From assembly GCA_016190935.1 (NCBI GenBank), contig JACPPP010000133.1:1-56427 (forward strand): a stretch of 56,427 nt of DNA, given 5' to 3'. The notes below the pieces were generated by a model. The model did not search any database. It saw only the letters and a list, made by a program, of their open reading frames with translations, and was not told where the DNA came from. This DNA comes from Armatimonadota bacterium (GTDB lineage Bacteria; Armatimonadota; UBA5829; DTLH01). The position numbers were made by a program, and so were the translations under genes. Position 1 is the stretch's first letter; every line of letters starts with the position of its first letter. Below, piece by piece: positions 28,391 to 45,760 of this stretch.

Positions 28391-30457
28391 CTACTTGTTC
28401 TTCTTGTATGTGAAGACTACAGCACTGGGCCCGACCGGCATATTGACCAAGAGACCGTTTTCCGCCAGTTCCTTACCCGAGACCTGTTTAGAGCTTGGAG
28501 CGTCAAGTTCGGTGATGACGTAGTTTGCCGCGGTATCAAGATCCCTCAGCTTGTACCGGGCCGTCTCGTATGAGCTCTCCGCACGGCGGAATACCTGCAC
28601 TACGCCCTCTCCTTCCTCGGGACGATTGAACTGCCAGGCCATCCAAACATCCTTTTCCGTGCTATAGCTCGTGAGCGGATAGTAGTCGCCCAGATAATTG
28701 GGAGCGAGATTCCGCCACTGCCTCATCCAACGCCTGAGCAAATCGAAATCAATATCGGTACGACGCATATCCCAAGCCCAAAGCACAAACGGCGCAACAT
28801 CACTGCGCAAGGTATATGTGTTACATGTACTGCCGGAAGCATGTCCTACTCCAGTCCCATAGTACGGCATCCACAACGATATGCCGTACGTGAGACACTG
28901 CATAGATACCGGGTCATAGGCCCAATCACTTCTCCATAGAGGCACCGAACGACGAAGGGTCTCCAGATCGTTTCGCCTGCCACCCGATGCACAGGAATCT
29001 ATCATAAGATTCGGATGTCTTCTGAGAAGCTCGTCCCAGAACGCAAGGTACCCACAAACATGCCTGTTCTCGGTGATCCCCTGACGATCCGGCGCATCAT
29101 TCGCTCGCCACATCGGAAGCGGATCTATATTGAAATCTTGCCTGTAGGCGTCGATACGCTCCTCCCGAAGCATGGTGTCTATATGATCAGTCACCCACTT
29201 CCGTGTTTCCGGGTTGCCCAGGTCAACAAGTTGCCAGCTCGTGGAAGGACCAAGTAGCCAATCTGGGTGGTTATCGTGTATCCAGTTTGGGAATGTGGCC
29301 CGCTCAGGCTCAAACCATACAATGGACCTCTTTATTCCCTTTGAACGAGCATAGTCGGTAACATCCCGTATCCCGCCTGGAAACCGTGTCCTATCTACCT
29401 TCCAAGTCCCAGTGTTCATCCAAGTCCCACTGTTTACATACCAGCCTGCATCTATCCACCAGTAGTCCAAAGTAAGGCCCTGCTTGGCGTACTGGTCAAT
29501 CCACCACTTTTCACCAGCCTCGGTAATTAACAGATCATTGAAGTAGTAGCCGTCAAACCCTCCAGTCATAGGCTCAAGCGGCTTTCCACCAGGCCTGGGA
29601 ACGTTGTATGCCAGCATCCATCGCCGCCAGATGTTCTGAGACCGGTAGCGGTCGCCCTGCCAGAACTGCACCACCATAAGAGGTGTCCTCGCTTCTTCTC
29701 CGGGAAGCAGCTTGAAGTGGGTCAGTTCCTGGCCCGCAGTAATGCCCAGGCCGGTCTTTTCATCTCTGGTGAATTTGGCGGACCATTGTCCCGGCCATCC
29801 GACGACTATGATTATCCCTTGGTTCCCCGATCGCAGGTTGAAATACGATAGGTCGCTGTTCGTGGGACGGCCACCCTCTGCAGCTATAGTTTTGTTCGTC
29901 TGTGGAATCAGTTTTGTCTCAAACGGCTCATAATCTCTCTGACTGCACGGGGTCCCTCTGTTGTGATATAGAACGAACTCGTTGTCTTGAGTTGAGGTAT
30001 CCTGCCGCAGCCGAATATCAAGCGCCTGTATGTTCTCAAGAATGGGTGTATCAGCCGAGCCGGCGTTCTTGAAATAAACGGTCCACTCAACGGTTGGATA
30101 GTCACTGTATTCGACGGCCACGCATCGCACGACGAGCCCGGTCTTCGGATCAGTATATGTACACGTATATTGGGCACGGTTCTTGTCCAGCTTTCTTGTG
30201 GACCGTTCGACCTTCCAGGTTTTCAACAAGTCCGTGGACGATTGGCCGCCATAGACGAAGGAGAACGGAGGCTCCACGGAGTCTACTATGGCAAGCCCCG
30301 CATTCTGCTGCGCGCCCCCAAGACTCCCCTGGAGCTTCGCAGCGGCCCAGTTCCGTGACAGAGACAGCTCATCAGCAGTCGGGGCCAGACCGAGCGCGGG
30401 CACGGCCAGGCACAGGGCGATACCCGCCACCACTGGCAAACGCGCCATCCTATGCAT
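28391..30457 (-). CDS. Secreted GH36-like (clan GH-D, alpha-galactosidase-type) glycoside hydrolase
   Basis: Signal peptide. YWWIDAGWY, VWFEPERA, the YRQDFNIDP nucleophile-type motif and the DSCASGGRRND acid/base-type motif. About 60 percent identical by eye to the C-terminal 650 aa of the neighbouring giant protein. Start moved to the third Met (30457), 7 nt after AGGAGG. Confidence 0.7.
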   Translation of the reverse strand: MHRMARLPVVAGIALCLAVPALGLAPTADELSLSRNWAAAKLQGSLGGAQQNAGLAIVDSVEPPFSFVYGGQSSTDLLKTWKVERSTRKLDKNRAQYTCTYTDPKTGLVVRCVAVEYSDYPTVEWTVYFKNAGSADTPILENIQALDIRLRQDTSTQDNEFVLYHNRGTPCSQRDYEPFETKLIPQTNKTIAAEGGRPTNSDLSYFNLRSGNQGIIIVVGWPGQWSAKFTRDEKTGLGITAGQELTHFKLLPGEEARTPLMVVQFWQGDRYRSQNIWRRWMLAYNVPRPGGKPLEPMTGGFDGYYFNDLLITEAGEKWWIDQYAKQGLTLDYWWIDAGWYVNSGTWMNTGTWKVDRTRFPGGIRDVTDYARSKGIKRSIVWFEPERATFPNWIHDNHPDWLLGPSTSWQLVDLGNPETRKWVTDHIDTMLREERIDAYRQDFNIDPLPMWRANDAPDRQGITENRHVCGYLAFWDELLRRHPNLMIDSCASGGRRNDLETLRRSVPLWRSDWAYDPVSMQCLTYGISLWMPYYGTGVGHASGSTCNTYTLRSDVAPFVLWAWDMRRTDIDFDLLRRWMRQWRNLAPNYLGDYYPLTSYSTEKDVWMAWQFNRPEEGEGVVQVFRRAESSYETARYKLRDLDTAANYVITELDAPSSKQVSGKELAENGLLVNMPVGPSAVVFTYKKNK

Positions 30458-30474
30458 TGTCATTCCTCCTGATG

Positions 30475-33400
30475 CTAGTCCAGCTTCTTGTAAGTGACCA
30501 CGGCGGCGCCGGGCTGAGAGGTGATCGTAATCGCCACCCCCTGGTCCGTCAGAACACTCCCGGTTACTGTCCCCAGCAGACCAGAGTCTATATCGCTTAC
30601 CGTATACTGCGCGGCAGGGTCCAGCCCGCGCAGTTTGAAAACAACCGTCAACTGAGTATTATCCGGTCTGCGGAATGCCTGCACCATGCCTTCACCTACC
30701 TCCGGACGGTCAAACTGCCAGGCCATCCAAACATTGCTGGCGGTGCTGTAGGAGGTCAGAGGGTAGTAGTCGCCCAAGCAGTTCGGGGCCAGCTCACGCC
30801 ACGTCGCCATCCAGCTTCGCATAAGGTCATAATCTAGATCCGGGCGGCGCATATCCCATGCCCACAGGACGGACGGGGCGGTTTCGCTGCGGAACGTATA
30901 GGGATCGCACGTGCTGACGTAGGGGTGTCCCACACCAGTCCCATAATACGGCATCCACATAGATATTCCGTAGGTCTGGCACTGCATGGCGGGCGGGCTA
31001 TAGGCATAGTCACTCCTCCAGAGAGGCACTGCTCGACGCAGGGTCTCGAGATCGTTACGTCTACCACCACTTGCACAACTGTCAATTAGCATATCCGGGT
31101 GCCGCCGAAGCAGCTCATCCCAAAATGCCAGGTATCCGGTCACGTGCTTGATCTCCGTGATCCCCTGCCGGTCCGCGGCGTCATTCCCTTGCCAAAGAGG
31201 AAGCGGGTCCCAGTTGAAGTCCTGTCGGTACCAGTCGATCCCCTCCTGGTTAAACGTGGTGTCGATAAGGTTCACGGCCCACTGCCACGCCGCCGGGTTC
31301 CCCAGATACACGAGCTGCCACAGCCCAACAGTGCCCAGCAGCCAGTCCGGATGGTTATCGTTCAGCCAGCTCGGATACGTGGCCCGCTCCGGCTCAAACC
31401 AGACCATGGTCTTCATCCCGTGTGACCTGGCGTGGTCCGTAACACCCCGCAGGCCGTCAGGGAATCTCTCCGTGTCCACCTCCCACGTGCCGGTGTTCAT
31501 CCACGATCCATGATTGACATACCACCCCGCATCCATCCACCAGCAGTCCGGGTGCAGGTCCTCTTCCACATACCGATCTATAAAAAGGTTTTCCTGCGCC
31601 TCGTTCATCAGTATCAACTCATTGCCGTTGAGATAGCAGTCCGTGCCAAATATCAACGGCGCCAGCGGCTGGCCGCCCGGTCTGGGAACGTTGTGGGCGA
31701 TCATCCACCTCCTCCAGATGTTCTGAGACCTGATCCAGTCCCCATTCCAGAACTGCAGAACCATGAGCGGTGTGCGCACCTCTTCGCCCGGATATAATCT
31801 GAAATGCGTCGTTTCCTGTCCGACAACAACGCTGAGCCCTGAACCCGCATCGCGCGTGAACTGAGCGGCCCACTGCCCCGGCCAGCCGACCACGATTATC
31901 ACTCCTGAACTTGGTGAGGTCTCTAAGTTGAAGTAGGACAAATCACTGTTAGTCGGCCTTCCTCCCTCTGCTGTGATCCGTTTTGTCGCGTTCGACCCGA
32001 GAATGGTCTCGAGCGGTTGGTAATCATTCGCAGTGCATGGACTGCCTATATTATGATGAAGCAGGAACTCATCGTTCGGGCTGCGGCCTATGCTCATATT
32101 GAGCGCCTGGATGTTCTCCAGAATAGGCGTATTCGCCGAGCCGTTGTTCTTGAAATAGATGGTCCACTCAACAGTCGGAAAATCGTTGTATTCGACGGCC
32201 ACACACCTCACCTGCATCTGAGTGATCGGGTCGTCGTAGGTAATGGTGCGTTCGGTGCGATAGTCGTCAATCGTCCTCGTGCTGAAACTCTGTTGCCAAC
32301 CGCCAAGCAGCCCGTCCGATGATTGACCCCCATAGATAAATGAGAATGGACGTCGAGTCGAATCTGCTCCAAGGTTATCCAAGATCCAGCGATGGCGTCT
32401 GGACATTTCATCGAGTGTTGCATGTATAGGCATGACATCGCCGTCACCCCTGGGTCTGACTGCCCTTACGGCGATCGTCTCGTCTTTCACAAACCCAGCC
32501 AGCCCAGTTACGGCAACATACTGATCCTGACCAGGTACTATGGTGGCAGGAATGACCAGCCCATCGAGCACCACCCGGACGCCTCTCTTTCCACTCCCGT
32601 CCTGAAGGCTGCTTCCATCATCGACATAGATATAGCTTCCATCACCGGACGCATAGGTAATCCATCCGCAGAGCCTAACCAACAGACCTGATACGTCAAG
32701 CCCCTCGGTAGCTGTGATCGCCTTGCCCGACACACCTAATGGACGGACCTCATCTCCCGCAGACCAGGTTGTTGTGCTGGTGACTCTAACCGCCCGTTCT
32801 CCGCTGGGATCGGTGGTCATCACACCGTCGAACGTGATCCTGTCTCCCAACGTGACCGATCTAACGCCGTTGTCTGGGATGACTTTGATACCCGCAGCAC
32901 GGTCCGGCTCTTCTATGTAGTAGCTATGATCGTTAAATGTTATTGAAGCAGCAGTTACGACCTTCGGCGAAGTAATGCTGATCTCCGTACCCCTGGCATG
33001 CGCTCTGAGGCTCCCTATCCTGTCCGTGGTAAACTTCGGCGCTAATTCGAACGCTCCTATATCTGGAGCCGATCCGTAATACGGGAAGCCGACGTCTGTT
33101 CCTGCGTTGACGGCCGGGGAACTCGCCTGCAGGTGATAGTCATGGGCCATTGAGTTGACGAATCTCGGTTCCATTTCAAACTCGCCAGTTCCCCAGTACG
33201 TGTTGGGGCCCCAGTTTGTCGAATTGTTGTAGTACAGATTGTGCGAATTGACGCAGCCGGTGCTGCTTCCGTGATCTATCCCGCGGTCCCACATGCCCTC
33301 GATGATATTGTTCCGGATAACCTGAGCTCCAGCGACGCCCAAGTTCGACCACGCATAGACTCCCGACCAGGAGCCGACCATAGTGTTATTGTAGATCCTC

Positions 33401-35103
33401 GTGTTCTGGCTCGAACCCGTGGTCATAACGCAGCCCGACGTTTTGGACGAGCCTTGGACGCCGACGTTGTAGATCACATTGTGGTGTATGAGGTCGTTCG
33501 AGCTGTTCGAGACGTACACGCCGCCGCACCAACCGTACCAATCGGACGCGCTGGGGTCCCCAGGCGTAAGATCGTGCACAACGCAGCGTGAGACAGTATT
33601 ATTCTGAGTGTTGTCGCCGAGGCATACTCCCCACTGGCATCCGATAACTTCGAACCCGTCGATGACCACTCCGCTCACCGTTACGAGAAACCCATACGAC
33701 TTCCTGTCCGGCTTTGGAATGCTGGTCTGATCGATCACGACCTTGCCCACGGCTTTATAGGTAATTGGAGAGGCGGCGTTGCCGGAGCAGTTCGCCAGTT
33801 GAACCCCCAAAGCATCGCTCTGAGGATAGGTTCCTGCCGCGACCACAACCGTATCGCCCGGCAAGAGGAGTCGCCGCGCATCACCATTGCTTATGGTCCT
33901 CCAAGCCACTGCGGACGTTGTCCCGTCCGATGAGTCGTCTCCGGTTGGAGATACGTAATAGGTCACACCCGGATACGGTGTCAATTCGAGATCCTGGATA
34001 GTCTGGCCTCCGGCAGTAATCGTCACAACAGCCTGTGCGGGGGTTGTATTGGGATAGCTCGCCTGAATCATCGGAGTGCCGACAGGCAGAACCAGTGAAT
34101 AACCCCCTTCGGTCCCGGTAGTGGTCGAGTTGGAACCCTCGAGCGTACGCACGGTAGCCCCAACCAGTATTGGACGGCCCGGCACATTCGCCGTGACCCT
34201 GCCTTTGACCGTTCCGATGAATGTTAGATCGAAATGTTGAGTTATAGTACCCCCGACAGGCACATTTACCGTGGCCTGTTGAGGCAGGATGTTGGAATAG
34301 ATGATCTCAACAGTATACGTCCCCGCGCGAACAGTAAGAGTGTAGCTGCCATCCGTCCCGCTCAAGGCCCAGAGAGCGGTTCCAACCACCTGAACTTTCG
34401 CACCGACTACTGCCGGATGCCCGGGCAGGTTAGCTGTAACTGTCCCTGTGATTGTGCCTGTGGACGAGCCTGGGACCAACTCGACGGTAGCCGATAGACC
34501 TGTCAAATCGCCACTAAATGTATTATCAGCTCCGTACCCGCCTGCGAAGTCAACCGTGTCATTAGCCGCGGCAAGCACATCCAGAATAAACGATGAGGAC
34601 TGGCCGGCATCCATGTTTCTCGTCCAGAGCACCAGTCCGTTCTGAAGCACCGTCCCGTCGACTTTGCCGAAGTTGAGTGCCTTGAAGCTCCCACGGATCG
34701 CACAGAGACCTTCTGCGGGGGCGGTCCACCTCACTACGCTCCTCTCATTATTCATTCCCGGATGCATAGCCATGCTCTGCGCCGGAATAGTTCCCCATTC
34801 GCTGACAGCATTTGTAGAGGCAGGGTTGTTGTAGACAGCGGGTGTCGCGTATGATGCCCACCAATACTGCACGTTTTGCCAGCCCGCTGGAAGCTGAGCG
34901 CCGATTCCGTGGCCTGCATAGTGTACCAGTTGATAACCTGCCGCCAAGTTCGGGGCATAGCCATAGCTCCATACGCCATTGGGATTGCCGGCCACCGAAA
35001 AATCCGTGGATGCATTCCAAGTCTGCCCGGCCACAGGCCCAACGGCCACAATCAGGCAGACAGCGACGACCGCTACATATAGGCGCTTACGTATAATCCA
35101 CAT
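30475..35103 (-). CDS. Giant secreted modular protein (1542 aa): signal peptide, NPNG-WSYG N-module, 2x carboxypeptidase-regulatory-like, right-handed beta-helix, YYIEEPDR module, GH36-like catalytic region
   Basis: Start at the ATG at 35103 (AAGGAG RBS) immediately before the hydrophobic signal. Approximate modules: N-module 34471-35025; CarboxypepD_reg-like pair 33979-34464; beta-helix 33043-33972 (TYYVSPTGDDSSDG ... DYHLQASSPAVNAG ... APDIGAFE); YYIEEPDR module 32431-33027; GH36-like 30478-32418 (WWMDAGWY, WFEPERA, YRQDFNWDP, DSCASGGRRND). Confidence 0.8.
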   Translation of the reverse strand: MWIIRKRLYVAVVAVCLIVAVGPVAGQTWNASTDFSVAGNPNGVWSYGYAPNLAAGYQLVHYAGHGIGAQLPAGWQNVQYWWASYATPAVYNNPASTNAVSEWGTIPAQSMAMHPGMNNERSVVRWTAPAEGLCAIRGSFKALNFGKVDGTVLQNGLVLWTRNMDAGQSSSFILDVLAAANDTVDFAGGYGADNTFSGDLTGLSATVELVPGSSTGTITGTVTANLPGHPAVVGAKVQVVGTALWALSGTDGSYTLTVRAGTYTVEIIYSNILPQQATVNVPVGGTITQHFDLTFIGTVKGRVTANVPGRPILVGATVRTLEGSNSTTTGTEGGYSLVLPVGTPMIQASYPNTTPAQAVVTITAGGQTIQDLELTPYPGVTYYVSPTGDDSSDGTTSAVAWRTISNGDARRLLLPGDTVVVAAGTYPQSDALGVQLANCSGNAASPITYKAVGKVVIDQTSIPKPDRKSYGFLVTVSGVVIDGFEVIGCQWGVCLGDNTQNNTVSRCVVHDLTPGDPSASDWYGWCGGVYVSNSSNDLIHHNVIYNVGVQGSSKTSGCVMTTGSSQNTRIYNNTMVGSWSGVYAWSNLGVAGAQVIRNNIIEGMWDRGIDHGSSTGCVNSHNLYYNNSTNWGPNTYWGTGEFEMEPRFVNSMAHDYHLQASSPAVNAGTDVGFPYYGSAPDIGAFELAPKFTTDRIGSLRAHARGTEISITSPKVVTAASITFNDHSYYIEEPDRAAGIKVIPDNGVRSVTLGDRITFDGVMTTDPSGERAVRVTSTTTWSAGDEVRPLGVSGKAITATEGLDVSGLLVRLCGWITYASGDGSYIYVDDGSSLQDGSGKRGVRVVLDGLVIPATIVPGQDQYVAVTGLAGFVKDETIAVRAVRPRGDGDVMPIHATLDEMSRRHRWILDNLGADSTRRPFSFIYGGQSSDGLLGGWQQSFSTRTIDDYRTERTITYDDPITQMQVRCVAVEYNDFPTVEWTIYFKNNGSANTPILENIQALNMSIGRSPNDEFLLHHNIGSPCTANDYQPLETILGSNATKRITAEGGRPTNSDLSYFNLETSPSSGVIIVVGWPGQWAAQFTRDAGSGLSVVVGQETTHFRLYPGEEVRTPLMVLQFWNGDWIRSQNIWRRWMIAHNVPRPGGQPLAPLIFGTDCYLNGNELILMNEAQENLFIDRYVEEDLHPDCWWMDAGWYVNHGSWMNTGTWEVDTERFPDGLRGVTDHARSHGMKTMVWFEPERATYPSWLNDNHPDWLLGTVGLWQLVYLGNPAAWQWAVNLIDTTFNQEGIDWYRQDFNWDPLPLWQGNDAADRQGITEIKHVTGYLAFWDELLRRHPDMLIDSCASGGRRNDLETLRRAVPLWRSDYAYSPPAMQCQTYGISMWMPYYGTGVGHPYVSTCDPYTFRSETAPSVLWAWDMRRPDLDYDLMRSWMATWRELAPNCLGDYYPLTSYSTASNVWMAWQFDRPEVGEGMVQAFRRPDNTQLTVVFKLRGLDPAAQYTVSDIDSGLLGTVTGSVLTDQGVAITITSQPGAAVVTYKKLD

Positions 35104-35156
35104 TCTGCTACTCCTTCTGGTCCTACTCTCGTGCTGACCCGGCTCGTCGCTACTCG

Positions 35157-38100
35157 TCACTCAATCTCTATGCCCTGAACAATCGCATCGTTGTTTCCGG
35201 TAGCGGTAATCCGTATCTTGATGTTCCCATCCTTGTCGGGCGTGATGTTCTGCGCTCGAATGTCTGCGGCCATTCCGACCTGCCCGGCCGCCTTCGCCGG
35301 GTCCCAAGACTCTCGGATTCTTCTGCCGTTGATCTCGATATTCATCGGCCTCTGACCAGGCTCCTTCAGCCACAGCTCAGCAAATTTCAGATGCACTGCA
35401 TATAGGCCAGCGGGAACATGTATAGTATAGCTTAACGACTTACCGCTGCGAGCAGTTTGATACAAAGCCTGATCATATAGTGTCGGAGATGCCTGGCTTA
35501 CAGCAGAATCAGAACAGAGCACCTCCCTATCCTCAAAACCTGTATCCGCGCTCCATGGGACGCTATTCCAGTCAACAAATTGGCTATCGGAGCCTGCATC
35601 AATCCGCATAGCAGGCCTTACCTCCGGCAGCACCTCTATCGCCTGAACCATCGCCCTGTCGGTCTTCTGGCTCGGCTCAATGCCTCCAGTGAACCTTAGC
35701 ATAATCCCTCCATCCGCATCTGGAACAAGGTATCTGAAGACGCGCTCATAAGCTTTCTTGCTGCCGCGCGCCGCTTGGCAGATGTCAAAATTGGTCAGGG
35801 CCCGCTTGCCGTTAATGCTCAGATTGAATGGTCTCTCGAAAGACCACTGAAACTTCGTCTCAGCAAACTTCAACCGCAGAGTATATAGGCCCGGCTTCAC
35901 GGGGATCGAGTAGCTGAAATCTTTGCCTTCTCTTCCATATTGATACAGTGCCTGATCCTCCAGAGTCGGCAGCGCGCCCGTGACCCCCACCTTAGAAGCC
36001 ACGGGCTTTCCACCACTAAAGAACCGATCGGCCGACCAAACGTTGCCGGCCCTGTCCGTATAAGGCTTCTTAGCCCCACACAGAATCCGCACGACGCTCG
36101 CCTCGCCGGCAGTCTCATTCTGTAGATACACGATCCGAGGCATCCAAGCAATGATGTCATGCTTCGGAGTTGTCCCCTTGTCGAGCACAAACCGGACTAC
36201 ATCCCCTTTGGCAACATCGACGGTCAAATCGTGCATGCAGCCCTTCAGATCTTCGACGGGTATTTGTGCCCAGCCGCCCAGTGGCCAGATCTGTTTTTCG
36301 CCATGGAGGATCCGCACGCGCAGAGGACCTCCCTTATCACGTCGATAGTACTCCTTCATGACGCGACTGATTATGCGCACCTTCCCGGCCTTGGGGGCAA
36401 CCCACGAGCGGACACACTGCGCATCCGTGGATGCCTGCTGCCAGCCTCGGCCGACTCTTGCCCCGTTCGCGCTCTCCCAGCACCCTTCCGACCCCTGGGG
36501 CTGATTGGCAATTCCACCGTAGTCACCGTAAGGAGTCTTCGCGGGTGTCGCCCAGACCATCGGAGTGAACGTCTTGTCGTCAGTCGTCGTATCTGCATAC
36601 CAGCCGTCGTATCCACGCTCCGGAAAGTTGCCCCCGAACACCGCGAAGACCAACGGCTCATCAAGTATCGGCTCCGATAACGTCCAGGGGCTTATATTAC
36701 CGTCCCCATCCACCGTCCGAACCGCATATTGAGCCTCAGGATCCCATCCTTCGGAATGATCGAAGAAGTACAAGCCCTTGCTTGCTTTTCCCAGTATCTT
36801 GGAGTCCCTGCGGACCTCATAGTAGCTGATCCAGTTATCATCGCTGCCCGGAGACCAGTATATCCCCACGCCTCCGTGCCCGACGTTCGTTTCACGCCGA
36901 GTAACTACGCGCCCAGGCGCATCAGGAGCAATCTTGTCGCGTCCACCGAGCGGGCGGTTCGAAAGATTCAGATAGACCAACTCGCGCGGGGCCTGTTTCT
37001 TGAAAGTAATCCCATTCGTCATCAAGTTAGCGCCTGTCCGAACCGTAGTCTCCTTAGTCGAATCGAATCCTACAATGTACTTGTGCTCAGGCAGCAGCCC
37101 GCGAGGGTAGATCGTCACTTCGGACTCTGCCCTATGAGTAGGGATGATCATCGACTTAGTGCGGTCGTGATTCAAGCGTTGGAAGTAATAGAACTCTTTG
37201 TCACCTTTGACAACCGGGTGCGACACATAGCTCCACCTGCCTGCGACTCCTTCTCGCAGCATGTAGCGATACAGATCGACGTCCTGCCGGACCAACTCGC
37301 GGTCGGAGTGAGTAACCCAGTAATCCCAGCACGGAACGACGGTCAAGTTCTGACGCGCAGTGTCGGGCCTGTACTTGCCATTGGCATAATACACCTCTAT
37401 CATCTCCATCCACTTGTCCGGCGGATCCAGATAGGAGAAGTAGAAGTTCGTCTGGTCTCCACGACCTGAGTCCGATAGATAGTTGAGGTCGGCATATCGC
37501 TGGATTTCGAATGTATGCGCGTATCTACTCCCTCCATTGCACGTATGGAACGATGACCGGGGATTCTGAGTGAGGAAGTGCTCAATCTGGCTGCGGAATC
37601 GCTTGTCAGCGTCAAAGTTGAACCCACCTATAGCATCTGTCCGCCACTGGAAGTCACCCCAGGACCCGACCTTGGTATCCATGATCCCTTGACTCGGCCA
37701 CCCGCAGAACCACAGTATCCAGGTGGCATCCATCTTCGTCAGGTACCGCAGGACCTGCGAGAAATCCGGCCCCTCACGGCTTGGAGCCCATGTCGGACCT
37801 TCAGACCATCCCGCGTCATCCCACAGCGCGTCAAACCCGCAAGTTCGCAGAATGTCTGTCCAATCCATGTCCACCTTTGCCATCCGGCTGGCAAACATGT
37901 CCTGCAGGTTGGTGGCCTCGGCGACCCACGGATGAGCAAGCTGGGTGCGACCATAAAAATAATCATTGGTATAGTCCCATAGATACTCGTACTGCCAGTC
38001 GTAGAGCCTTCGGCCCATGTCGTCGAGGTCGTCACGAAACACTCCAAAAGTAAGAAGAGGCAACTGAAGACGCGCGCCTGGGGTGAGTTTATAGCCAATA

Positions 38101-39425
38101 AGCTCAGGCAGACTTGCCGTCACTATCACCGGGCCGGAACCCTGATGGTCTGTGGAGAAGACCCAGTCACCAAGATACTCAGCCGCCATGAACCATCCAT
38201 CGCCATCGGGTCCATTTCCTTGGATCGCCATCCATGGGTAGTAGTAGTCGGTCTCGTAGCCAAATGCGGCATGGTGATACGAATCCGAGACTGTGTCGGA
38301 TTGCAGCAATCCCTGGTTCGGACGGCTGTTGGCGCCGTACATCCAATAGTGGGTAAATGAGGAACTCTTGTCTTCCGGCATTGCGATAGAGAAGTGATCT
38401 GCTGACTCAATGGCAACCTCACTGGAGCCCGCATTCTCAATCTCTACCCACTGACGCAACACTGAGGTGCCAGGATAGGCAACGATGTGCAGGTCCACCC
38501 TCAGCGCCTGACGCCTGAGCGCTAGATCGAGTTGCACTGCAGGTCTACCTCCCGCCGCGATTTCGCGGGCTCCCCCTGACTCCAAGCTCCATCCCTTACC
38601 ACTCTGGACGGGCTGCCCTGTAGCCAACGGATTCGGCCTGAATACGAGAATCTCAAGGCAGGTCTCGCCTCCACCGACGTTCTCCGCCTGCCCTCTAATG
38701 GTAACCACACCATCTTTAGTTGCCTGCCACACACGCGCGGAGTCTGCTCTTATCGATGGGTGCAGTTTCGTCGAACCGACCAGCGGCACATCCGTGGGTG
38801 CGGTATACCAGGTTCTCCCGATCATAACCCGGACTTTGTCTCCGCCCGGCTGCTGCTCAATCGAATCCAGTGGCTCAAGATACCGCGTTCCTCGCTTATG
38901 AATGCAATAATGCCAAACAGGCCCCTGTGCAAGCGTAGTCTCATCCGATGAGGCATAGCTTTCTCCGTCCCCGTAATCAACCGTGGTGATCCATTTTGTC
39001 TCAGCTCCTTTGTGCTGACCACCAACAGCCCCAACGCAGAACGCAATCTTGTCCCCGCGCTTCACCGCTATCTGGACCTTGTCGCTGACCGGGTCGGCGC
39101 TGCCGTTGCTTTTCAGAGACTTTGTCCATACCGACTCGATGGTGTATCCTCCCCGACTTTCCAGCAGGAAAGGGTCCGCCTGTCCTGTCAAGTATTCCCT
39201 TGCCGGGGAGCACAGTTTGTTCTGGTAGCCGGCCAGACGCAACTGTCCGTCCTTACTCTCGAAGGCAAGCTGGACGGCGCCGGTGCCAATGGTCCACCTC
39301 AGACCATCAGCGCTGCCGCGTGCGTAGGCATCGCCTACCTGCACACTGGACGATGCTACGACCGCCGCCATTGAGCCGCAAAACGACAGAGCGGCGCAGA
39401 TCAAGATCCTCAAGCGCCAGTTCAT
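35157..39425 (-). CDS. Giant secreted modular protein (1422 aa): divergent GH36-like core, FN3, two divergent copies of the N-module fold, tandem C-terminal malectin/CBM57-like domains
   Basis: Signal peptide with GAGGAGG RBS. GH36-like region about 36951-38540 (LWDDAGW, FQWRTDAIG, HTCNGGSRYAH). FN3 about 36681-36929. Malectin-like repeats about 35622-36098 and 35160-35612 (..LYQYGREGKDFSYSIPVKPGLYTLRLKFAE.. / ..LYQTARSGKSLSYTIHVPAGLYAVHLKFAE..). Confidence 0.75.
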   Translation of the reverse strand: MNWRLRILICAALSFCGSMAAVVASSSVQVGDAYARGSADGLRWTIGTGAVQLAFESKDGQLRLAGYQNKLCSPAREYLTGQADPFLLESRGGYTIESVWTKSLKSNGSADPVSDKVQIAVKRGDKIAFCVGAVGGQHKGAETKWITTVDYGDGESYASSDETTLAQGPVWHYCIHKRGTRYLEPLDSIEQQPGGDKVRVMIGRTWYTAPTDVPLVGSTKLHPSIRADSARVWQATKDGVVTIRGQAENVGGGETCLEILVFRPNPLATGQPVQSGKGWSLESGGAREIAAGGRPAVQLDLALRRQALRVDLHIVAYPGTSVLRQWVEIENAGSSEVAIESADHFSIAMPEDKSSSFTHYWMYGANSRPNQGLLQSDTVSDSYHHAAFGYETDYYYPWMAIQGNGPDGDGWFMAAEYLGDWVFSTDHQGSGPVIVTASLPELIGYKLTPGARLQLPLLTFGVFRDDLDDMGRRLYDWQYEYLWDYTNDYFYGRTQLAHPWVAEATNLQDMFASRMAKVDMDWTDILRTCGFDALWDDAGWSEGPTWAPSREGPDFSQVLRYLTKMDATWILWFCGWPSQGIMDTKVGSWGDFQWRTDAIGGFNFDADKRFRSQIEHFLTQNPRSSFHTCNGGSRYAHTFEIQRYADLNYLSDSGRGDQTNFYFSYLDPPDKWMEMIEVYYANGKYRPDTARQNLTVVPCWDYWVTHSDRELVRQDVDLYRYMLREGVAGRWSYVSHPVVKGDKEFYYFQRLNHDRTKSMIIPTHRAESEVTIYPRGLLPEHKYIVGFDSTKETTVRTGANLMTNGITFKKQAPRELVYLNLSNRPLGGRDKIAPDAPGRVVTRRETNVGHGGVGIYWSPGSDDNWISYYEVRRDSKILGKASKGLYFFDHSEGWDPEAQYAVRTVDGDGNISPWTLSEPILDEPLVFAVFGGNFPERGYDGWYADTTTDDKTFTPMVWATPAKTPYGDYGGIANQPQGSEGCWESANGARVGRGWQQASTDAQCVRSWVAPKAGKVRIISRVMKEYYRRDKGGPLRVRILHGEKQIWPLGGWAQIPVEDLKGCMHDLTVDVAKGDVVRFVLDKGTTPKHDIIAWMPRIVYLQNETAGEASVVRILCGAKKPYTDRAGNVWSADRFFSGGKPVASKVGVTGALPTLEDQALYQYGREGKDFSYSIPVKPGLYTLRLKFAETKFQWSFERPFNLSINGKRALTNFDICQAARGSKKAYERVFRYLVPDADGGIMLRFTGGIEPSQKTDRAMVQAIEVLPEVRPAMRIDAGSDSQFVDWNSVPWSADTGFEDREVLCSDSAVSQASPTLYDQALYQTARSGKSLSYTIHVPAGLYAVHLKFAELWLKEPGQRPMNIEINGRRIRESWDPAKAAGQVGMAADIRAQNITPDKDGNIKIRITATGNNDAIVQGIEIE

Positions 39426-39548
39426 TTATGGAAACCTCCTCAAGCTCAGTTTATGATTGCAGAAAAATGGTTCAAGCAGTCAATTTGTACGCCTAATTGC
39501 AGCAGAGAATTTGAATACCGAGGTGATAACAGCATTAACGAAATGAAT

Positions 39549-39577
39549 GGCCGGGTGGACTCAATACCCACCCGGCC
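39549..39577 (-). terminator. Hairpin downstream of the PEP-CTERM gene (10-bp perfect GC-rich stem, 9-nt loop)
   Basis: ggccgggtgg-actcaatac-ccacccggcc. On the minus strand it is followed by attcatttcgtt, which is only moderately T-rich. Confidence 0.45.
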
Positions 39578-39642
39578 AGAGCCAGATTATCCACGGCATG
39601 TCGCAGCCGTATTCTTAATAGCACCTTGCATCCGTAGATTGA

Positions 39643-40398
39643 TTACCTTGACTTGCGGCGCAGCAGAGCCAGACCAGCGCTGCCCAGTAGTCCGCCGAGC
39701 ATCATCATGGAGCCAGGCTCGGGAACGACATCAATACTAGCCTGCAGGGCAGCAAGGCCCATGCTGAAGTCCCGATCGGGACCCAAGCCGACTGTAAAGT
39801 CGATCTTGTCACCCTGTGCCAGGGTCAGAAGCAGCGAGAATGGCGCCTCTTCGATCAACTGGCTGGGATCACTGGGATCATACCAGATCAGACCGTCGAA
39901 GATACTGGTCCTGTTGAGAAGGATGTGTACGTCATTCGTCGACGTCATCCATACCTGCTGGAGGAACTTGCCGCTGATCAGATAGTCACCTGCCGCGGGA
40001 GCTGTCCACCGTATCAGGGGGAACTCGGGCGCGTAAACGCCCGGGTGCATGGCGACCTCGTTTGCCCGCATGCTAAACCACCCGCTATCCCACTGAGCGT
40101 TCGTCTTGTTATGCAAGATGGACGGCGACGCAAAAGCATACCACCATCCTTCTATCGCCCCGGTAGCCCCTCCGGGTCCGCCAGGATAGAGAGCGAGGTC
40201 GGGAACATACTCACCGTCGTAGTTGAACCTGTAGGCAGGATTCGTTATGTCGTCAGTCCAACCATAACTCCAAGCGCCGCTCGGATTGGTGGACCCAAAA
40301 TCGCCCGAAACGTCCCAGCCCGCGATGGCAGGAAGAGCAACGATTCCGAGGCCGACAGTTAGTGTCAGTACAAAAAATGTTCTTACTGTTCGATACAT
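39643..40398 (-). CDS. PEP-CTERM-anchored protein consisting only of the NPNG-WSYG N-module, 251 aa
   Basis: Signal peptide, N-module at aa 27-224 (39727-40320), then VPEPGSMMMLGGLLGSAGLALLRRKSR (PEP motif, TM helix, basic tail). AAAGGAG RBS. Confidence 0.85.
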   Translation of the reverse strand: MYRTVRTFFVLTLTVGLGIVALPAIAGWDVSGDFGSTNPSGAWSYGWTDDITNPAYRFNYDGEYVPDLALYPGGPGGATGAIEGWWYAFASPSILHNKTNAQWDSGWFSMRANEVAMHPGVYAPEFPLIRWTAPAAGDYLISGKFLQQVWMTSTNDVHILLNRTSIFDGLIWYDPSDPSQLIEEAPFSLLLTLAQGDKIDFTVGLGPDRDFSMGLAALQASIDVVPEPGSMMMLGGLLGSAGLALLRRKSR

Positions 40399-40606
40399 CT
40401 TACTTTCTCCTTTCGTTTTTACAGATTGTGTGTGTTGTCGGATGCTTGATGCTATAATCGGCTCTACGTTTACAGCGTTTACGCTTAGATTCCCAGTCGG
40501 TGCCTGCTTGGGCGTCCCGCACCCTGATTAAACACTTGCAGGCCGGATGAGAAAGGGGTTAGGCCCGGGCTCGGGCCCAACATCGTTTCGTCGTTGCTAA
40601 TCAGCA

Positions 40607-43600
40607 CTATGGGTTCACTATGACGTCAGTGTCCCCTCTGGGCCGAATAGCTGAAATAATAGTCGTCCCTTCCTTAGCCAGTCCAGCCAATCCTGTGATG
40701 GCAACGTAAGGCTCGCCGTTGAGATCCTTTGTGATTGGACTTGTAAGGCCGCTTAGCATGACTCTCACGCCAACCGCTACCCCGCTGCCATCGTTGACTG
40801 CACTGCCATCATCTACATATATGTAGTTGGCGCCTTTGAAGGTGACCCTGCCCCAGATCGTCACTAAAAGACCTGAGGTACTTGTCCCCGTGCCGGAGAC
40901 AGTCCTGTTATTGATGCCCAGCGGTCCAAGCGGTATCCCAGGGGTCGGGCTTACTGATGTGGCATCAATATACTTCTCGCCGTTGGCATCATTAGCCACA
41001 ATGCCGGTCAGCGTCATGCTGTCTCCAAGTGAGACGGCCGTGACGCCACTGCGTGGAACTACCTTGATCCCGCAGGACCTATCCGGCTCTTCAATGTAGT
41101 AGCTACCGTCACTAAAAGTCCCGGAGGCAGCCGTAGACACCTTGGCATCCGTAAGCCTTACGGACGTGCCGGGATCCAGCCGCTTGATGTCGAGGATTCG
41201 AGTGTATGCGGCCCCTGGCAGATCCAGCGTGAAGTTCTGTGTCTTCGTCGTTCCCGCGACAACCGCTACCGTCGCCTGTGCCGTCTCATACCCGGTCTTG
41301 CTGGCCATCAGTGTCTGGGATCCGGGAGCCAGCGCCAGTGTGTAAGAGCCATTCTGGTCGGTCAGCGCCCAGACAGAGTTGTCCAACAACCCAACTTTCG
41401 CTCCCGAAAGGGACGGATTGCCGAGTTCACTCGAATTGACTATACCCGTCACCAGACCGATAGGTGTTGTTGAGGCACTCTCAAATGCTCCACGATCCGG
41501 AGCAGGCGGTGTAAACGGCAGGCCAACATCGACGCCTGAGTTGATGGCGAGCGATCCAGCCTGCAGGTGATAGTCGCGCCCAGATGCGTTTACGAACAAC
41601 GGGTCAGCGTTGAACTCAGCAACACCCGGGCTGGCCCCAGAACCATAGTCCACAACGTTGTTGTAGAAAAGGTTATGGGAATGTGCCAGTGCTCGGTTAT
41701 AGCTAAGCGCCTGAACCTTGGATTCCGTGATGATGTTGTTCACCACGCTGCTGTTAGGTGAAGTGTCCATAAGCGCGCCTGTCGATGTGCTGACGAACGT
41801 GTTGTTGTAGATCTTCAGGTTACTACAATTCCCCGTTGTGTAGAAGCCACGGTCATCAACAGCCGCCGCCTTGCCATAGACCACATTATTGCAATACGTG
41901 TTGTCACTATTATTGTAGGCATCGCAGAATCCTGTGGAATAGCCGTATGTGGCCTGGTTCGAGTCATGGACAAGGCAGTTCTTTACTTTGACGTGGTTGG
42001 CGCCATCACTCACGAACACACCGTGGAAACACCCGATGACCTCAAACCCATCGATCACGATGTACGTTGCCGCCGTCGTAGCGACGTGGATTCCCATCGT
42101 GACGCCAGCGGCGTTGTTTCCGTTTATGAGCACCCTGCCCGACGCAGTTTCGGCTTTGTAGGTTATCGGAGCCAGCATGTTCCCGCCACACATTCTTATG
42201 TCCGCGGCGGTCTTGCCGCCGACCGCTGTCCACAGAGAATACGTGCCGGGTTGAACCAGGATGGTATCGTTCGCCTTAAGTTGTTTTAATCTGTCGCCGT
42301 TATCGATCGAGGCCCACGCGGTCTGCAAACTCAAACCATCGGCATCATCATCGCCAGTGGGTTTGACATAATAAGTCACTCCCGGGAGGGCACTCAATAC
42401 GAAGTCATGCACCACGGTTTCTTCCGTTTGGACCGTTATGGTCGCCAACGCCGGAGCAGCGTCGGGGTAGCTGACGTCCACGGTATAGGTGCCGGGTGGC
42501 AGCACCAGCCAATACGTTCCGTCCGCCGCGGTTGTCGACCAAACACCTGATGAACTAGATACCACGGCTCCGGGAATCGGTGTGTGCTCCTCTGTATTCG
42601 CCGTGACCGTACCCCTGATTCCGGACGCAGGTGTCGTAGAACTCGATTCAAACGCCCCCCGATCAGGCGCCGGACCTGTGAATGGAAGTCCTACGTCGAG
42701 TCCGGTGTTGATAGCAGGTGAACCGGAAGCCAGATGGTAATCGCGACCCGCTGCATCTACAAACATCGGATCGATATTGAATTCACCAGTGCCAAGAGAT
42801 GTCCCAATGACGTCATCGGGATTGTTGTAAAAGAGGTTGTAGGAGTGGCTGAAGCCAACGTCTCCATACACGGAGTTGATCCCCGAGAACTTCGAGTCGG
42901 TGATAATGTTGTTTGCCACATTCGTCCCACCTAGCGAATTCCCGATGAAGACTCCTTGCGACAGTCCTACGAAGGTGTTGTTGTAGATCTTCGCATTTGA
43001 GTTGGCATCTGTATAGACGCCAACATCACTCGCCAGGCCAGAGTCACTCACAACCACGTTATGGAAATAAGTGGTATTGTCGGCTCCCCAAACATCCTGG
43101 AAGCCAGCGCAGCCTTCCGACGGATACAATGTAATGCTCGTTAGGTCGTGAACATAGCAATTTTGGACTAATACGTCAGCCGATGTGCCCTGAACCATGA
43201 CTCCTATCGAGCATCCTGAAAACTCGAAACCGTCAACGACCACGTCGTGAGCGCCCTGTACGGCCATCCCGTATTTGCGATCGTCAAGATTCTGGTCATC
43301 GTATATCAGCACTCGATCCCCGGGTACCTTATTGTCTGCAATATAGGTAAGCGGATGGTAAGGTCTACCGCTCGCTCGCAGAAGACCCGCGCTCCTCTGC
43401 CACGCGCCTTCATCACCGTACACTGGATACATGCCTGGCTGCACCAAAACAGTATCACCAGGACCGAGCACCGCGGGCCAGAGTAGCTGGGGAGGGTCTT
43501 GATTGTCGTACTTGGAATAGACACCCCTGTCGATAGTCTTCCATGCCTCCACGATGCTTGTTCCCGACAGGGAATCATCCCCATCAGCCTTGACATAATA

Positions 43601-44779
43601 GGTCGTCCCCGGAGGCGTGGTCAGCGAGAAATTCTTGGTAACTCCAGCCTGGGAGACGATTGTCACAGGCTCTGTGATTGTGACGTACCGATAGCCGCTG
43701 GCTTCGAGTGAATAGTCGCCAACGTCCAATATCATTAGGTATTGGCCGTCGGCATTCGTGACCGTTGACTGCGTGTCACCGGCAACCGGTACACTCAACG
43801 TCGCTCCAACAACCGGAGCGTTTCCGGGATCGTTTGCCGTAACCAAGCCGCTTACAATGCCTTTGCCCGGAATCAGGCTCAGCGAGAAGTCCTTGGCCGA
43901 CTTAGTGCCGGACAGAACCGATACGACAGATGTCGCAGTCTGGTAGTTCTCGCAACTGACTTCTACTGTCCGCTGGCCGCCGGGCAGGGCAAGGGAGTAT
44001 GTGCCGTCGGGCGCCGTCACGGTTGTACTGAAGACATTGTTGACGTCCCTGACGGTTGCCCAAGCCACGGGAGGGCTGCCGGCCACATTGGCCGTGACTT
44101 GTCCCTTGATTATGCCGTAGCCAGTGAGCAGCTCTATGTCCGCCACAACGCACGTTGTATCCCCACTGAATGTGTTGTCTATTCCCCATCCAAGGGCAAA
44201 GTCGACGATGTCACCTCCGGCAACGACATCGTTGATTTCGAACGGTGTGGTATCCGGAGGGGCGGCGAATTCGCGCCAAAGCTGCGTTCCATTCAGAAGA
44301 ATAGTCAGGTCGGTCTTGCCGAAATTGGACGGCGTGAACGATCCACGAACGGAGACAACACCGTCCGACGGACAACCCCAGCGGGCTATGCACCTTTCAC
44401 CTGTCATACCGGGGTGCATAGCTACAGTATAGGCAGGTATATTTCCCCAGTTGCCCGGGCTTAAGGCGTCGGAGTCCGTCGGATTGCAGAAAATCATGGG
44501 TTGGGTCAAAGCAGCCGGTGCCCACCACTGCACCATAGACCACCCGAGTGGAAAACTCGGGCCAGCCGTTCCGCTGACTACATCCAAATTTAATGTATAT
44601 CCGGGTCCCGCTTCAAAATCGGACTTGGACGCCCATCCGTAGCTCCAGTTGCCGTTGGGGTTGCTCGCTATCGACCAGTCGCCCGCCAGACTCCAGGTCG
44701 CGCCAAATCCAGGCGCCACAGCAAGGACGATCCCCACTAGAACCATAACCCAGAAAACGGACCTTGTTAATCGAGACAT
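40607..44779 (-). CDS. Giant secreted modular protein (1390 aa): N-module, then CarboxypepD_reg-like and right-handed beta-helix units twice, then CarboxypepD_reg-like and a C-terminal YYIEEPDR module
   Basis: Start at the ATG at 44779 (AGGAG RBS) before the signal peptide. Approximate modules: N-module 44126-44701; reg-like pair 43619-44119; beta-helix 1 42647-43612; reg-like 42389-42625; beta-helix 2 41477-42385; reg-like 41219-41461; YYIEEPDR module 40610-41212. Both helices end with GRDYHL..GS.AIN.G.DVGLPF..PAPDRGAFES. Confidence 0.8.
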   Translation of the reverse strand: MSRLTRSVFWVMVLVGIVLAVAPGFGATWSLAGDWSIASNPNGNWSYGWASKSDFEAGPGYTLNLDVVSGTAGPSFPLGWSMVQWWAPAALTQPMIFCNPTDSDALSPGNWGNIPAYTVAMHPGMTGERCIARWGCPSDGVVSVRGSFTPSNFGKTDLTILLNGTQLWREFAAPPDTTPFEINDVVAGGDIVDFALGWGIDNTFSGDTTCVVADIELLTGYGIIKGQVTANVAGSPPVAWATVRDVNNVFSTTVTAPDGTYSLALPGGQRTVEVSCENYQTATSVVSVLSGTKSAKDFSLSLIPGKGIVSGLVTANDPGNAPVVGATLSVPVAGDTQSTVTNADGQYLMILDVGDYSLEASGYRYVTITEPVTIVSQAGVTKNFSLTTPPGTTYYVKADGDDSLSGTSIVEAWKTIDRGVYSKYDNQDPPQLLWPAVLGPGDTVLVQPGMYPVYGDEGAWQRSAGLLRASGRPYHPLTYIADNKVPGDRVLIYDDQNLDDRKYGMAVQGAHDVVVDGFEFSGCSIGVMVQGTSADVLVQNCYVHDLTSITLYPSEGCAGFQDVWGADNTTYFHNVVVSDSGLASDVGVYTDANSNAKIYNNTFVGLSQGVFIGNSLGGTNVANNIITDSKFSGINSVYGDVGFSHSYNLFYNNPDDVIGTSLGTGEFNIDPMFVDAAGRDYHLASGSPAINTGLDVGLPFTGPAPDRGAFESSSTTPASGIRGTVTANTEEHTPIPGAVVSSSSGVWSTTAADGTYWLVLPPGTYTVDVSYPDAAPALATITVQTEETVVHDFVLSALPGVTYYVKPTGDDDADGLSLQTAWASIDNGDRLKQLKANDTILVQPGTYSLWTAVGGKTAADIRMCGGNMLAPITYKAETASGRVLINGNNAAGVTMGIHVATTAATYIVIDGFEVIGCFHGVFVSDGANHVKVKNCLVHDSNQATYGYSTGFCDAYNNSDNTYCNNVVYGKAAAVDDRGFYTTGNCSNLKIYNNTFVSTSTGALMDTSPNSSVVNNIITESKVQALSYNRALAHSHNLFYNNVVDYGSGASPGVAEFNADPLFVNASGRDYHLQAGSLAINSGVDVGLPFTPPAPDRGAFESASTTPIGLVTGIVNSSELGNPSLSGAKVGLLDNSVWALTDQNGSYTLALAPGSQTLMASKTGYETAQATVAVVAGTTKTQNFTLDLPGAAYTRILDIKRLDPGTSVRLTDAKVSTAASGTFSDGSYYIEEPDRSCGIKVVPRSGVTAVSLGDSMTLTGIVANDANGEKYIDATSVSPTPGIPLGPLGINNRTVSGTGTSTSGLLVTIWGRVTFKGANYIYVDDGSAVNDGSGVAVGVRVMLSGLTSPITKDLNGEPYVAITGLAGLAKEGTTIISAIRPRGDTDVIVNP

Positions 44780-44996
44780 ACTTATGCTCCTTTCATCTCC
44801 TTTTTGCTGCACCACAGCAACACAACTCAAGTTTGTCCTGTGGTACCATCATAACTCTTTCACAGGAATCATAGGCCACGCTGGACCATTGCTCTTGGAA
44901 CCACCTCCCTCGAAGAACTGACTAGAATCTACAGCAAGTTATTCGAAAACATACTGGACAAAAGCATGAAGTTTTCACACCCCTATGGGGCAAGGT

Positions 44997-45689
44997 TCAC
45001 ATAGTGGGCTGTCCAGGGTAGGCCGTCCATGTTAGGTTCGTATAGTAATCGCGCTTGACCCACCGCGCATGACCGTCACAGTGACTGAAATTGCAGCCTC
45101 CAATGTGAACGTCCGTTGGTGTCTTGACCGACGGGACGAACCAGCCATCGACAACGGGAAGAACTATCTTCAAGGCCTTGTTGAGGCCACCGGCTCCCTC
45201 ATCAACTAGTAGAACCGTCTTTGATGGAGTCACTATCAGACTGTCCTGCATCGGAGGAATGTAATTCGAAACACAGTAATTTACTGTGTAGCTGAGAGGG
45301 AAATTTCTCGTCTTCACATGAATATCGGAGGGGCAAACGTAGACCTTTGTGCTCTTAACATATGGAAAGATGACTCCCTTCCGCACATTCACCGTGATAC
45401 CCGGTTTTGCATAGTTGCCGGAGAACCGCCCTTCCAGGCGGACCCAGTCCGGCCAGTTAGGATTTCCCATCGCTCCCAGAGCAGCGCCGGTAGGGTAGGT
45501 GCCGTTCCATTCATTGATATACATGCGGAACCCGGTAGTCAGTTGCTTCATGTTGTCCAGGCAAGACGTCTGGCGTGCTTTCTCCTGAGCTGTTACGAAC
45601 ACAGGAAACAGAATTGCAGCCAGTATCGCGATTATCGCGATGACTACCAGAAGCTCAATCAGCGTAAAACCAGAGGATTTTCTAACCAT
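44997..45689 (-). CDS. Prepilin-type N-terminal cleavage/methylation domain protein with C-terminal H-X9-DG motif (pseudopilin-like), 230 aa
   Basis: [26 protein letters not shown]-terminus. C-terminal [12 protein letters not shown] has exactly H-x9-DG. ATG at 45689 lies 11 nt after AAGGAG. Confidence 0.85.
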
Positions 45690-45760
45690 TGATTTTTCCA
45701 CTCCTTTTCCGTTTCCAAATTACGGATCGCCCTCAATATGGCACCCCGTCCGCAACTCTT

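Follow-up and report, generated by a model that had tools for sequence, protein, structure and literature searches.

The 56,427-nucleotide (nt) contig JACPPP010000133.1 of an Armatimonadota bacterium (assembly GCA_016190935.1), whose whole length we refer to as the window, encodes three neighbouring secreted proteins of 1542, 251 and 1390 amino acids (aa) that share an N-terminal module of about 190 residues. By sequence comparison, this module is a member of a very large family of bacterial extracellular domains that has no model in the libraries we searched. From the sequences and a predicted structure we tentatively read it as a binding head of the lectin or carbohydrate-binding module (CBM) type, a reading to which we give somewhat less than an even chance.

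The three proteins are encoded within a series of four consecutive genes, all on the minus strand: a 1542-aa secreted enzyme (30475-35103, with its ATG at 35103 and the longest open reading frame (ORF) starting from GTG at 35160), a 1422-aa protein (35157-39425), the 251-aa protein (39643-40398), and a 1390-aa secreted enzyme (40607-44779, with its ATG at 44779 and the longest ORF starting from TTG at 44830). The module occupies 34471..35025 in the 1542-aa enzyme (residues 27-211), 44126..44701 in the 1390-aa enzyme (residues 27-218) and 39727..40320 in the 251-aa protein (residues 27-224), of which it is the sole globular part; like the genes, the three copies lie on the minus strand, and each starts right after a typical signal peptide as read from the translations. 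Pairwise BLASTP of the excised modules aligned the 251-aa and 1542-aa copies at 31% identity (E 7e-24) and the 1542-aa and 1390-aa copies at 43% identity (E 1e-51), and the three-way alignment contains 46 invariant columns. When a family hidden Markov model (HMM) built from 100 members was run on every ORF of the window, it returned the copies with E-values of 4e-61 (1542-aa), 5e-60 (251-aa) and 2e-50 (1390-aa), and the 1422-aa protein was the only further ORF above noise. These E-values rule out chance similarity, and the three segments are, as judged by alignment, homologous far beyond chance. The original prediction of a collinear module in the three proteins thus holds, down to coordinates that correspond exactly to the residue ranges given above. 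The motifs that it listed are also present, with two corrections: the 251-aa copy has NPSG rather than NPNG, and the 1542-aa copy has ND.VDF rather than GD.VDF. In the 1542-aa copy, GW is followed by five residues and WWA.

As had been anticipated, the module could be assigned to no named family. With the full window proteins, Pfam-A gave no match on the module at E ≤ 0.1, and the excised modules, the family consensus and six other members gave nothing meaningful in Pfam even at E ≤ 10; across 100 members searched at E ≤ 1, the PEP-CTERM tail was the only recurrent Pfam family. NCBIfam 20.0, searched with the window proteins and 100 members, matched PEP-CTERM tails and had no match on the module. 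Among PDB sequences, a profile of three module sequences found nothing, and a profile of 100 sequences found only gC1q domains, those of cerebellin-1 (best E 0.17, range 0.17-0.24) and EMILIN-1 (E 2.1). Membership in an existing named family found no support, the Pfam, NCBIfam and PDB searches together yielding only PEP-CTERM tails and these marginal C1q matches. A literature search found no paper on the module domain.

The family itself is large and widely distributed. A word-indexed search recovered 152 relatives, nearly all of 200-330 aa. When 1.84 billion cluster representatives (clusters at 50% identity) were searched exhaustively with a profile, 11,686 proteins reached E ≤ 1e-3, of which 7,378 also reached 1e-10 and 3,213 reached 1e-30; we rely on the stricter counts because the query profile included signal peptides and tails. 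Members occur mainly in Verrucomicrobiota, Planctomycetota and Acidobacteriota. A genome scan placed them in these three phyla, including the cultured Geothrix fermentans DSM 14018 among the Acidobacteriota, as well as in Armatimonadota, Omnitrophota and Lentisphaerota, and scattered matches were found in metagenome-assembled genomes labelled Proteobacteria, Candidatus Dormiibacterota and Bifidobacteriaceae. The module is therefore conserved well beyond this locus, and the thousands of homologues across many phyla rule out the lineage-specific duplication that the original prediction had named as a possible alternative. The near-invariant residues of the family are mostly aromatic or polar (W17, Y19, W59, N71, R104, D171, D174 and T190), and in tandem proteins they are kept in the consensus of every repeat. 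Numbered as in the 251-aa module, the near-invariant positions comprise D7, F8, N12, P13, G15, W17, S18, Y19, G20, W59, N71, R104, T106, A107, P108, G111, G170, D171, D174, F175 and T190.

The AlphaFold2 model of the 251-aa module, computed with a 100-sequence alignment, is a single compact all-beta domain of 11 strands with a predicted local distance difference test (pLDDT) score of 89.2 and a predicted template-modelling (pTM) score of 0.88, and the module is accordingly predicted to form one jelly-roll beta-sandwich. Foldseek found only distant matches for this model in the PDB (E ~3e-5 to 3e-4, query-normalised template-modelling (TM) score 0.30-0.41), which fell into two groups, carbohydrate-binding jelly rolls (CBM35, CBM6, CBM51) and C1q/TNF heads. 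The C1q/TNF group, comprising cerebellins, C1QL, TNF and APRIL, was the more numerous and had the lowest root-mean-square deviation (rmsd), 2.8-3.5 Å over ~93 columns (E 5e-5 to 3e-4, TM 0.33-0.37 query-normalised and ~0.5 target-normalised). Structures of CBM35 (2w1w, 4qb1) and CBM6 (8j3x) matched with E 3e-5 to 2e-4, TM 0.30-0.35 (query) and 0.40-0.47 (target) and rmsd 7-9 Å, and the best coverage was obtained with the CBM51 structure 2vmg (TM 0.41/0.52, rmsd 4.9 Å, 152 columns). In BFVD the query-normalised TM score reached at most 0.48, and many of the matches were C1q-domain and collagen-like proteins.

At the sequence level, several blocks of the module are collinear with those of gC1q domains: RWTAP..G.Y.i with F.AP..G.Y.F, V.VL.NG with V.L.LNG, L.AGD.V with ..GD.V, and the C-terminal DSTG with STFSG. 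Profile comparison by hhalign gave the module family a probability of 12.5% against cerebellin-1 alone and of 11.7% (E 0.0026) against a 121-sequence cerebellin/adiponectin profile, a weak test given the shallowness of that profile (effective number of sequences, Neff, 2.1). For CBMs, no model matched the three window modules, the consensus or six other members at E ≤ 10, including PF03422 (CBM_6) and PF08305 (NPCBM); marginal matches with E-values of 0.007 to 0.08 appeared in 1-3 of 100 members, namely to CBM_56, CBM_6 (1 of 100, E 0.011) and NPCBM (2 of 100, E 0.081). By these comparisons of sequence and model, the module is nearest in fold class to C1q/TNF or to the CBMs; it is not established as a member of any named family, and its own family has no solved structure.

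Architectures across the family are highly varied. Among the best 150 exhaustive matches, single proteins contain from one up to nine or ten copies of the module, which may lie anywhere in the chain and are often directly adjacent; runs of two are more frequent than runs of three and these more frequent than runs of four, so that three is not preferred. The products of the module genes at 80 genomic loci were of two sorts: small secreted proteins, some of them anchored, and proteins of 800-5,500 aa in which the module is internal; many members are secreted proteins of ~210 aa. Partner domains include Laminin_G_3, Ig-like, Big_7, cadherin-like, Calx-beta, RHS, CBM_6, C-type lectin, and S8 and M12B peptidase domains, and are of adhesin and lectin types. 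A PEP-CTERM signal is present on ~42 of 100 sampled members, and others carry PEPxxWA-CTERM, VPLPA-CTERM, MYXO-CTERM or a GC-type dockerin, or no anchor. The architectures and anchors, like the homology, family size, fold class and locus content, are direct results of the analysis, and they run counter to the supposition that the module might be systematically N-terminal and associated with PEP-CTERM. A second module gene lay within 8 kb at only 4 of the 80 genomic loci, and no family recurred among the 118 genes that lie near 42 small module genes in other genomes.

A more divergent relative of the module is found in the 1422-aa protein, whose catalytic core matched the N- and C-terminal GH36 models only below their cut-offs. 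Residues 955-1086 of this protein matched the family HMM with an independent E-value (i-E) of 1.4e-4, and the same weak match was seen in an orthologue of 75% identity. Using a profile of 73 full-length homologues of the 1422-aa protein as query against the module family, hhalign aligned residues ~920-1099 with 96.2% probability (E 2.2e-9) over 167 columns that span the whole module including its N-terminal part, so this divergent copy (36129..36668, minus strand), situated between the GH36C-like region and two malectin domains, is real and complete. The original prediction of a copy at 36120-36653 (residues 925-1102) was therefore correct as to its existence, and it is a full module rather than just the C-terminal half. 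The second copy proposed for this protein, at 38640-39143 (residues 95-262), was not established: the HMM gave two weak, non-collinear fragments (i-E 0.51 and 5.6), and hhalign probabilities were 34% for residues 25-160 and 61% (E 8e-5) for residues ~160-300, the latter leaving a candidate very divergent copy at 38526..38948 (minus strand) that overlaps the proposed segment. The family of the 1422-aa protein is well conserved: over 100 homologues, close to it in length, are 43-75% identical to it. They come from Phycisphaerae, Pirellulaceae, Armatimonadota, Hydrogenedentes and Kiritimatiellae, and some are named 'malectin domain-containing carbohydrate-binding protein' in their sources.

Judged from the gene content, the window is a glycan-catabolic cluster. 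Its genes encode a CBM4_9 protein with weak GH10/GH42-like matches, a 690-aa GH36 protein, a GH2 protein, a sodium:solute symporter (SSF), a LacI regulator and sugar dehydrogenases. Following the module, the 1542-aa enzyme has two CarboxypepD_reg domains, a pectate-lyase-like beta-helix and a GH36 domain, and the 1390-aa enzyme has a CarboxypepD_reg domain and two beta-helix units. Over its first ~890 residues, the 1542-aa protein is a paralogue of the 1390-aa protein (38% identity, E 3e-112), and residues 299-891 of the former also align to residues 721-1387 of the latter, indicating that the unit of CarboxypepD_reg and beta-helix is duplicated within the 1390-aa protein. The two giant enzymes thus have the module in common because they are paralogues over ~890 residues, not through independent shuffling of the module, and in the window the module stands alone only in the 251-aa protein. 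In the closest related locus (L081 and L082, metagenome contigs from the Joint Genome Institute (JGI), compared with 28391-53843 of the window), which holds the 75%-identical orthologue of the 1422-aa protein, the genes for a creatininase, the SSF symporter, the malectin enzyme and GH36 are kept together, and the three module genes and GH2 are absent. From this comparison, the module genes seem to have been inserted as accessories into a conserved catabolic cluster.

That the module binds a ligand, what this ligand is and what the conserved residues do are inferences that we draw from several of these features taken together: the ligand-binding jelly-roll neighbours, the conserved signature, the adhesin and lectin partners, the variety of anchors, the glycan-catabolic locus, and the adjoining malectin domains. 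The residues of DFS..NPNGxWSYG, W, N, HPG, RWTAP..G, GDxVDF and DST would form a putative glycan site, possibly with bound Ca2+. On the two paralogous enzymes, the N-terminal non-catalytic module would target the enzyme to a polysaccharide or retain it there; on the PEP-CTERM protein, it would make a surface-tethered glycan-binding protein within a glycan-utilisation locus; and in the 1422-aa GH36-like enzyme, the divergent copy would be part of a non-catalytic tail beside the two malectin domains. The retention of aromatic and polar residues in every tandem repeat fits a multivalent binding site better than a passive spacer, and the appearance of the same domain with varied anchors or none is the behaviour of a displayed functional head. 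The suggestion in the original prediction of a glycan- or ligand-binding unit is thus reasonable in view of the predicted beta-sandwich fold. Several observations weigh against it: no sequence-level link to any CBM or lectin family was found (Pfam was empty at E ≤ 10), the structural similarity is weak (TM ≤ 0.41 in the PDB and ≤ 0.48 in BFVD), and we know of no ligand for any family member. No enrichment of carbohydrate-active enzymes (CAZymes) was seen near the 42 small module genes in other genomes, which also counts against this reading and implies that the link to glycan degradation is not general.

The numerous C1q/TNF matches raise a different explanation, in which the module would be an oligomerisation or docking head, the three copies would assemble as a heterotrimer, in the manner of the C1q A/B/C chains, or as mixed homotrimers, and the anchored copy would tether both enzymes to the cell surface; the cohesin-like idea of the original prediction would thereby gain a concrete mechanism. 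That gC1q domains are the only PDB sequences retrieved by the family profile, with collinear motif blocks, and that C1q/TNF proteins supply most of the top Foldseek matches in both PDB and BFVD with the lowest rmsd, argues in its favour, as does the presence of exactly three module-bearing genes as neighbours in the window. Set against these are the hhalign probability of 11.7% and the unmatched Pfam C1q model, together with the arrangement of modules within single chains. The predicted model of P0130, a natural three-module protein, has a fairly fixed inter-domain geometry (pTM 0.71). Its match to the single-chain trimers of TNF (APRIL/BAFF), adiponectin and C1q extends over one domain at a time (TM ≤ 0.21, rmsd ~23 Å), showing that its arrangement is not that of a TNF-like trimer; this comparison, an indirect test of trimer assembly, and the lack of enrichment for runs of three speak against a pseudo-trimer within tandem proteins. 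Loci with more than one module gene are rare (4 of 80), the module often occurs in a secreted protein that stands alone or inside a giant protein, the related locus does not have the trio, and the two enzymes are simply paralogues. We therefore consider an oligomerising C1q/TNF-like head improbable, and the fuller proposal, in which the module is a trimerising bacterial offshoot of C1q/TNF and a heterotrimer lets the PEP-CTERM-bearing 251-aa protein tether both enzymes of more than 1,300 residues to the cell surface, very improbable. The cohesin-like docking of the giant enzymes through the PEP-CTERM copy, as first imagined, likewise found no support: the module occurs at any position and in arrays, PEP-CTERM is seen on fewer than half of the sampled members, second module genes are rare, neighbourhoods are heterogeneous, and the closest related locus keeps its GH36 and malectin genes without module genes. 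No cohesin or dockerin signatures were present among the Pfam matches of the four window proteins; in the family, two of 100 members had marginal Dockerin_1 matches (E 0.012) and one had a GC-type dockerin tail, all outside the module.

Two further explanations would place the function of the module elsewhere. It might attach proteins to the cell envelope or matrix by binding a polymer of the producer itself (exopolysaccharide, S-layer or outer-membrane glycan), or form a rigid stalk, with no recognition of a substrate. This would agree with its presence in giant multi-domain surface proteins and tandem arrays, its frequency on exosortase substrates, which are linked to exopolysaccharide, the heterogeneous neighbourhoods of the small members and the fixed geometry of the P0130 model. 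However, pure spacers such as the Ig-like and CarboxypepD_reg repeats that also occur in these proteins seldom have polar and aromatic motifs so strongly conserved, many secreted members of ~210 aa have nothing to hold, and binding of the producer's own glycan would be a special case of the binding head that we prefer rather than a true alternative to it; we regard attachment or spacing without substrate recognition as unlikely. The module might instead be a small jelly-roll enzyme, either a polysaccharide lyase or a hydrolase, with catalytic His, Arg, Asp and Tyr residues, as the near-invariant H (HPG), R (RW), D (GD.VDF), N and Y, the stand-alone secreted members and the polysaccharide-degrading partners in the window could suggest. 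Arrays of up to nine or ten copies are atypical for catalytic domains, though, GH16, GH11/12, PL7 and similar folds were absent from the top structural matches, and no Pfam enzyme family was matched, making a catalytic role highly improbable.

The 251-aa protein consists of a signal peptide (MYRTVRTFFVLTLTVGLGIVALPAIA; 40321..40398, minus strand, assigned by eye from the translation), the module and a canonical PEP-CTERM tail, whose sorting signal and stop codon span 39643..39726 (minus strand). The tail, with the VPEPGS motif, a transmembrane helix and a basic end (VPEPGS-MMMLGGLLGSAGLALL-RRKSR), scored above both curated cut-offs (PF07589, 20.9 vs 20.7 bits; TIGR02595, 19.8 vs 16), bearing out the initial description of this protein as just the module plus a PEP-CTERM anchor. 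PEP-CTERM is an exosortase-dependent sorting signal (PMC1569441); there is no exosortase among the ORFs of the window, and the 1542-aa and 1390-aa proteins do not have a PEP-CTERM tail. The gene for the 251-aa protein has GGAG as its ribosome-binding site and a gap of 208 bp before it, and ~65 nt downstream of it lies a terminator-like hairpin (39548..39578, minus strand) with a 13-bp stem containing 9 G-C pairs, a match by consensus only that suggests the end of the transcription unit. The gap and the strong hairpin fit what has been found for PEP-CTERM genes, many of which are monocistronic and preceded by long gaps (PMC1569441). No sigma-54 promoter motif was matched upstream of the gene, and counts of this motif across the window were at chance level. 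The 208-bp gap also contains a G+C-rich palindrome (GGGCCCGAGCCCGGGCC) without a T-run just past the stop codon of the 1390-aa gene (40535-40575, minus strand), which may be a structural or regulatory element, or may have arisen by chance.

Inspection of the giant enzymes and their surroundings revealed several additional features. The GH36 part of the 1542-aa protein (30475-32700) shares 63% identity along 632 residues with the neighbouring 690-aa GH36 protein (28391-30463), a similarity that suggests a recent tandem GH36 duplication followed by fusion to the N-terminal half with the module and beta-helix. Both enzymes also have in common a second domain of ~190 residues with the pattern ...SYYIEEPDR..GIKV...YIYVDDGS..DGSG..GVRV...TGLAG...RPRGD.DV and no Pfam match; it lies at ~32390-32990 in the 1542-aa protein (residues ~705-905), ahead of the GH36 domain, and at ~40610-41195 in the 1390-aa protein (residues ~1195-1390), which ends with it. 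The gene immediately upstream of the 1390-aa gene (44997-45701, minus strand) encodes a 234-aa protein that combines DUF1559 with an N-terminal methylation motif; proteins of this type are abundant in Planctomycetota-like genomes. At the left end of the window, two transposase-like ORFs, 211-1278 (+) with DDE_3 and helix-turn-helix (HTH) domains and 2711-3382 (+) with DDE_5, are on the strand opposite to almost all other genes of the window.

At least 7,378 clusters (50% identity, E ≤ 1e-10) carry a domain that is modelled by neither Pfam-A nor NCBIfam 20.0 and has no structure, in carriers from abundant soil and freshwater phyla (Acidobacteriota, Verrucomicrobiota, Planctomycetota, Armatimonadota) whose module proteins are currently annotated as 'hypothetical' or after their other domains. 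Definition of the family would improve the annotation of thousands of surface proteins and CAZymes, and would provide a recognisable head for one of the commonest types of exosortase cargo. If the module does bind glycans, it would be a candidate for a new CBM family in CAZy; a true link to C1q would extend that superfamily deep into environmental bacteria; and a heterotrimer, if one forms, would be a new exosortase-based mode of enzyme display, a 'cellulosome without cohesins', in bacteria of the Planctomycetes-Verrucomicrobia-Chlamydiae (PVC) type. On present evidence, current understanding is not overturned, and we regard the result as the discovery of a domain of unknown function with a familiar fold class and role, not as a new kind of system.

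Among characterised proteins, the C1q/TNF domains (PF00386; cerebellin-1, adiponectin, C1q A/B/C) resemble the module in being beta jelly rolls of about ten strands, in giving the best sequence-profile match in the PDB and the highest Foldseek numbers in two libraries, and in motifs that are collinear over the C-terminal ~110 residues; by analogy, both could be displayed ligand-recognition heads. The differences are that support falls under any threshold for membership (E 0.17, hhalign 12%, no Pfam match), that the module has an extra ~80 N-terminal residues with DFS..NPNGxWSYG, and that it has no collagen or coiled-coil stalk and its three-module model is unlike a C1q/TNF trimer. The CBM35, CBM6 and CBM51 (NPCBM) families are likewise non-catalytic beta-sandwich modules that often occur in tandem on secreted glycoside hydrolases and lyases, but are shorter (~130-150 vs ~190 residues). 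In NCBIfam, 'choice-of-anchor' domains are globular domains found with alternative C-terminal sorting signals, and the module similarly occurs with alternative signals or no anchor; however, no existing model of this kind matches it, and the choice_anch_Q matches in the two enzymes fall in the beta-helix region.

For the 251-aa protein specifically, the flocculation protein PepA (NCBIfam NF033554) has the same plan of a signal peptide, a globular part of ~200 residues and a PEP-CTERM tail, and this small PEP-CTERM protein raises the amount of cell-bound exopolysaccharide (PMC9850573). In contrast to PepA, the 251-aa protein scored 21 bits with NF033554 against a cut-off of 80, over profile positions 188-260 in the tail only, and its gene is in a catabolic rather than an exopolysaccharide locus and has no upstream sigma-54 motif. 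Cohesin-dockerin cellulosomes and the surface glycan-binding proteins of Bacteroidota polysaccharide-utilisation loci offer a comparison by analogy only; the 251-aa protein differs in having a PEP-CTERM anchor instead of a lipoprotein or S-layer homology (SLH) domain and in showing no sign of module-module binding. What these systems have in common with it is that the genes for secreted glycan-degrading enzymes are accompanied by one for a surface-anchored protein that is not catalytic, and it is the Bacteroidota surface glycan-binding proteins that we propose as the possible analogue of the 251-aa protein.

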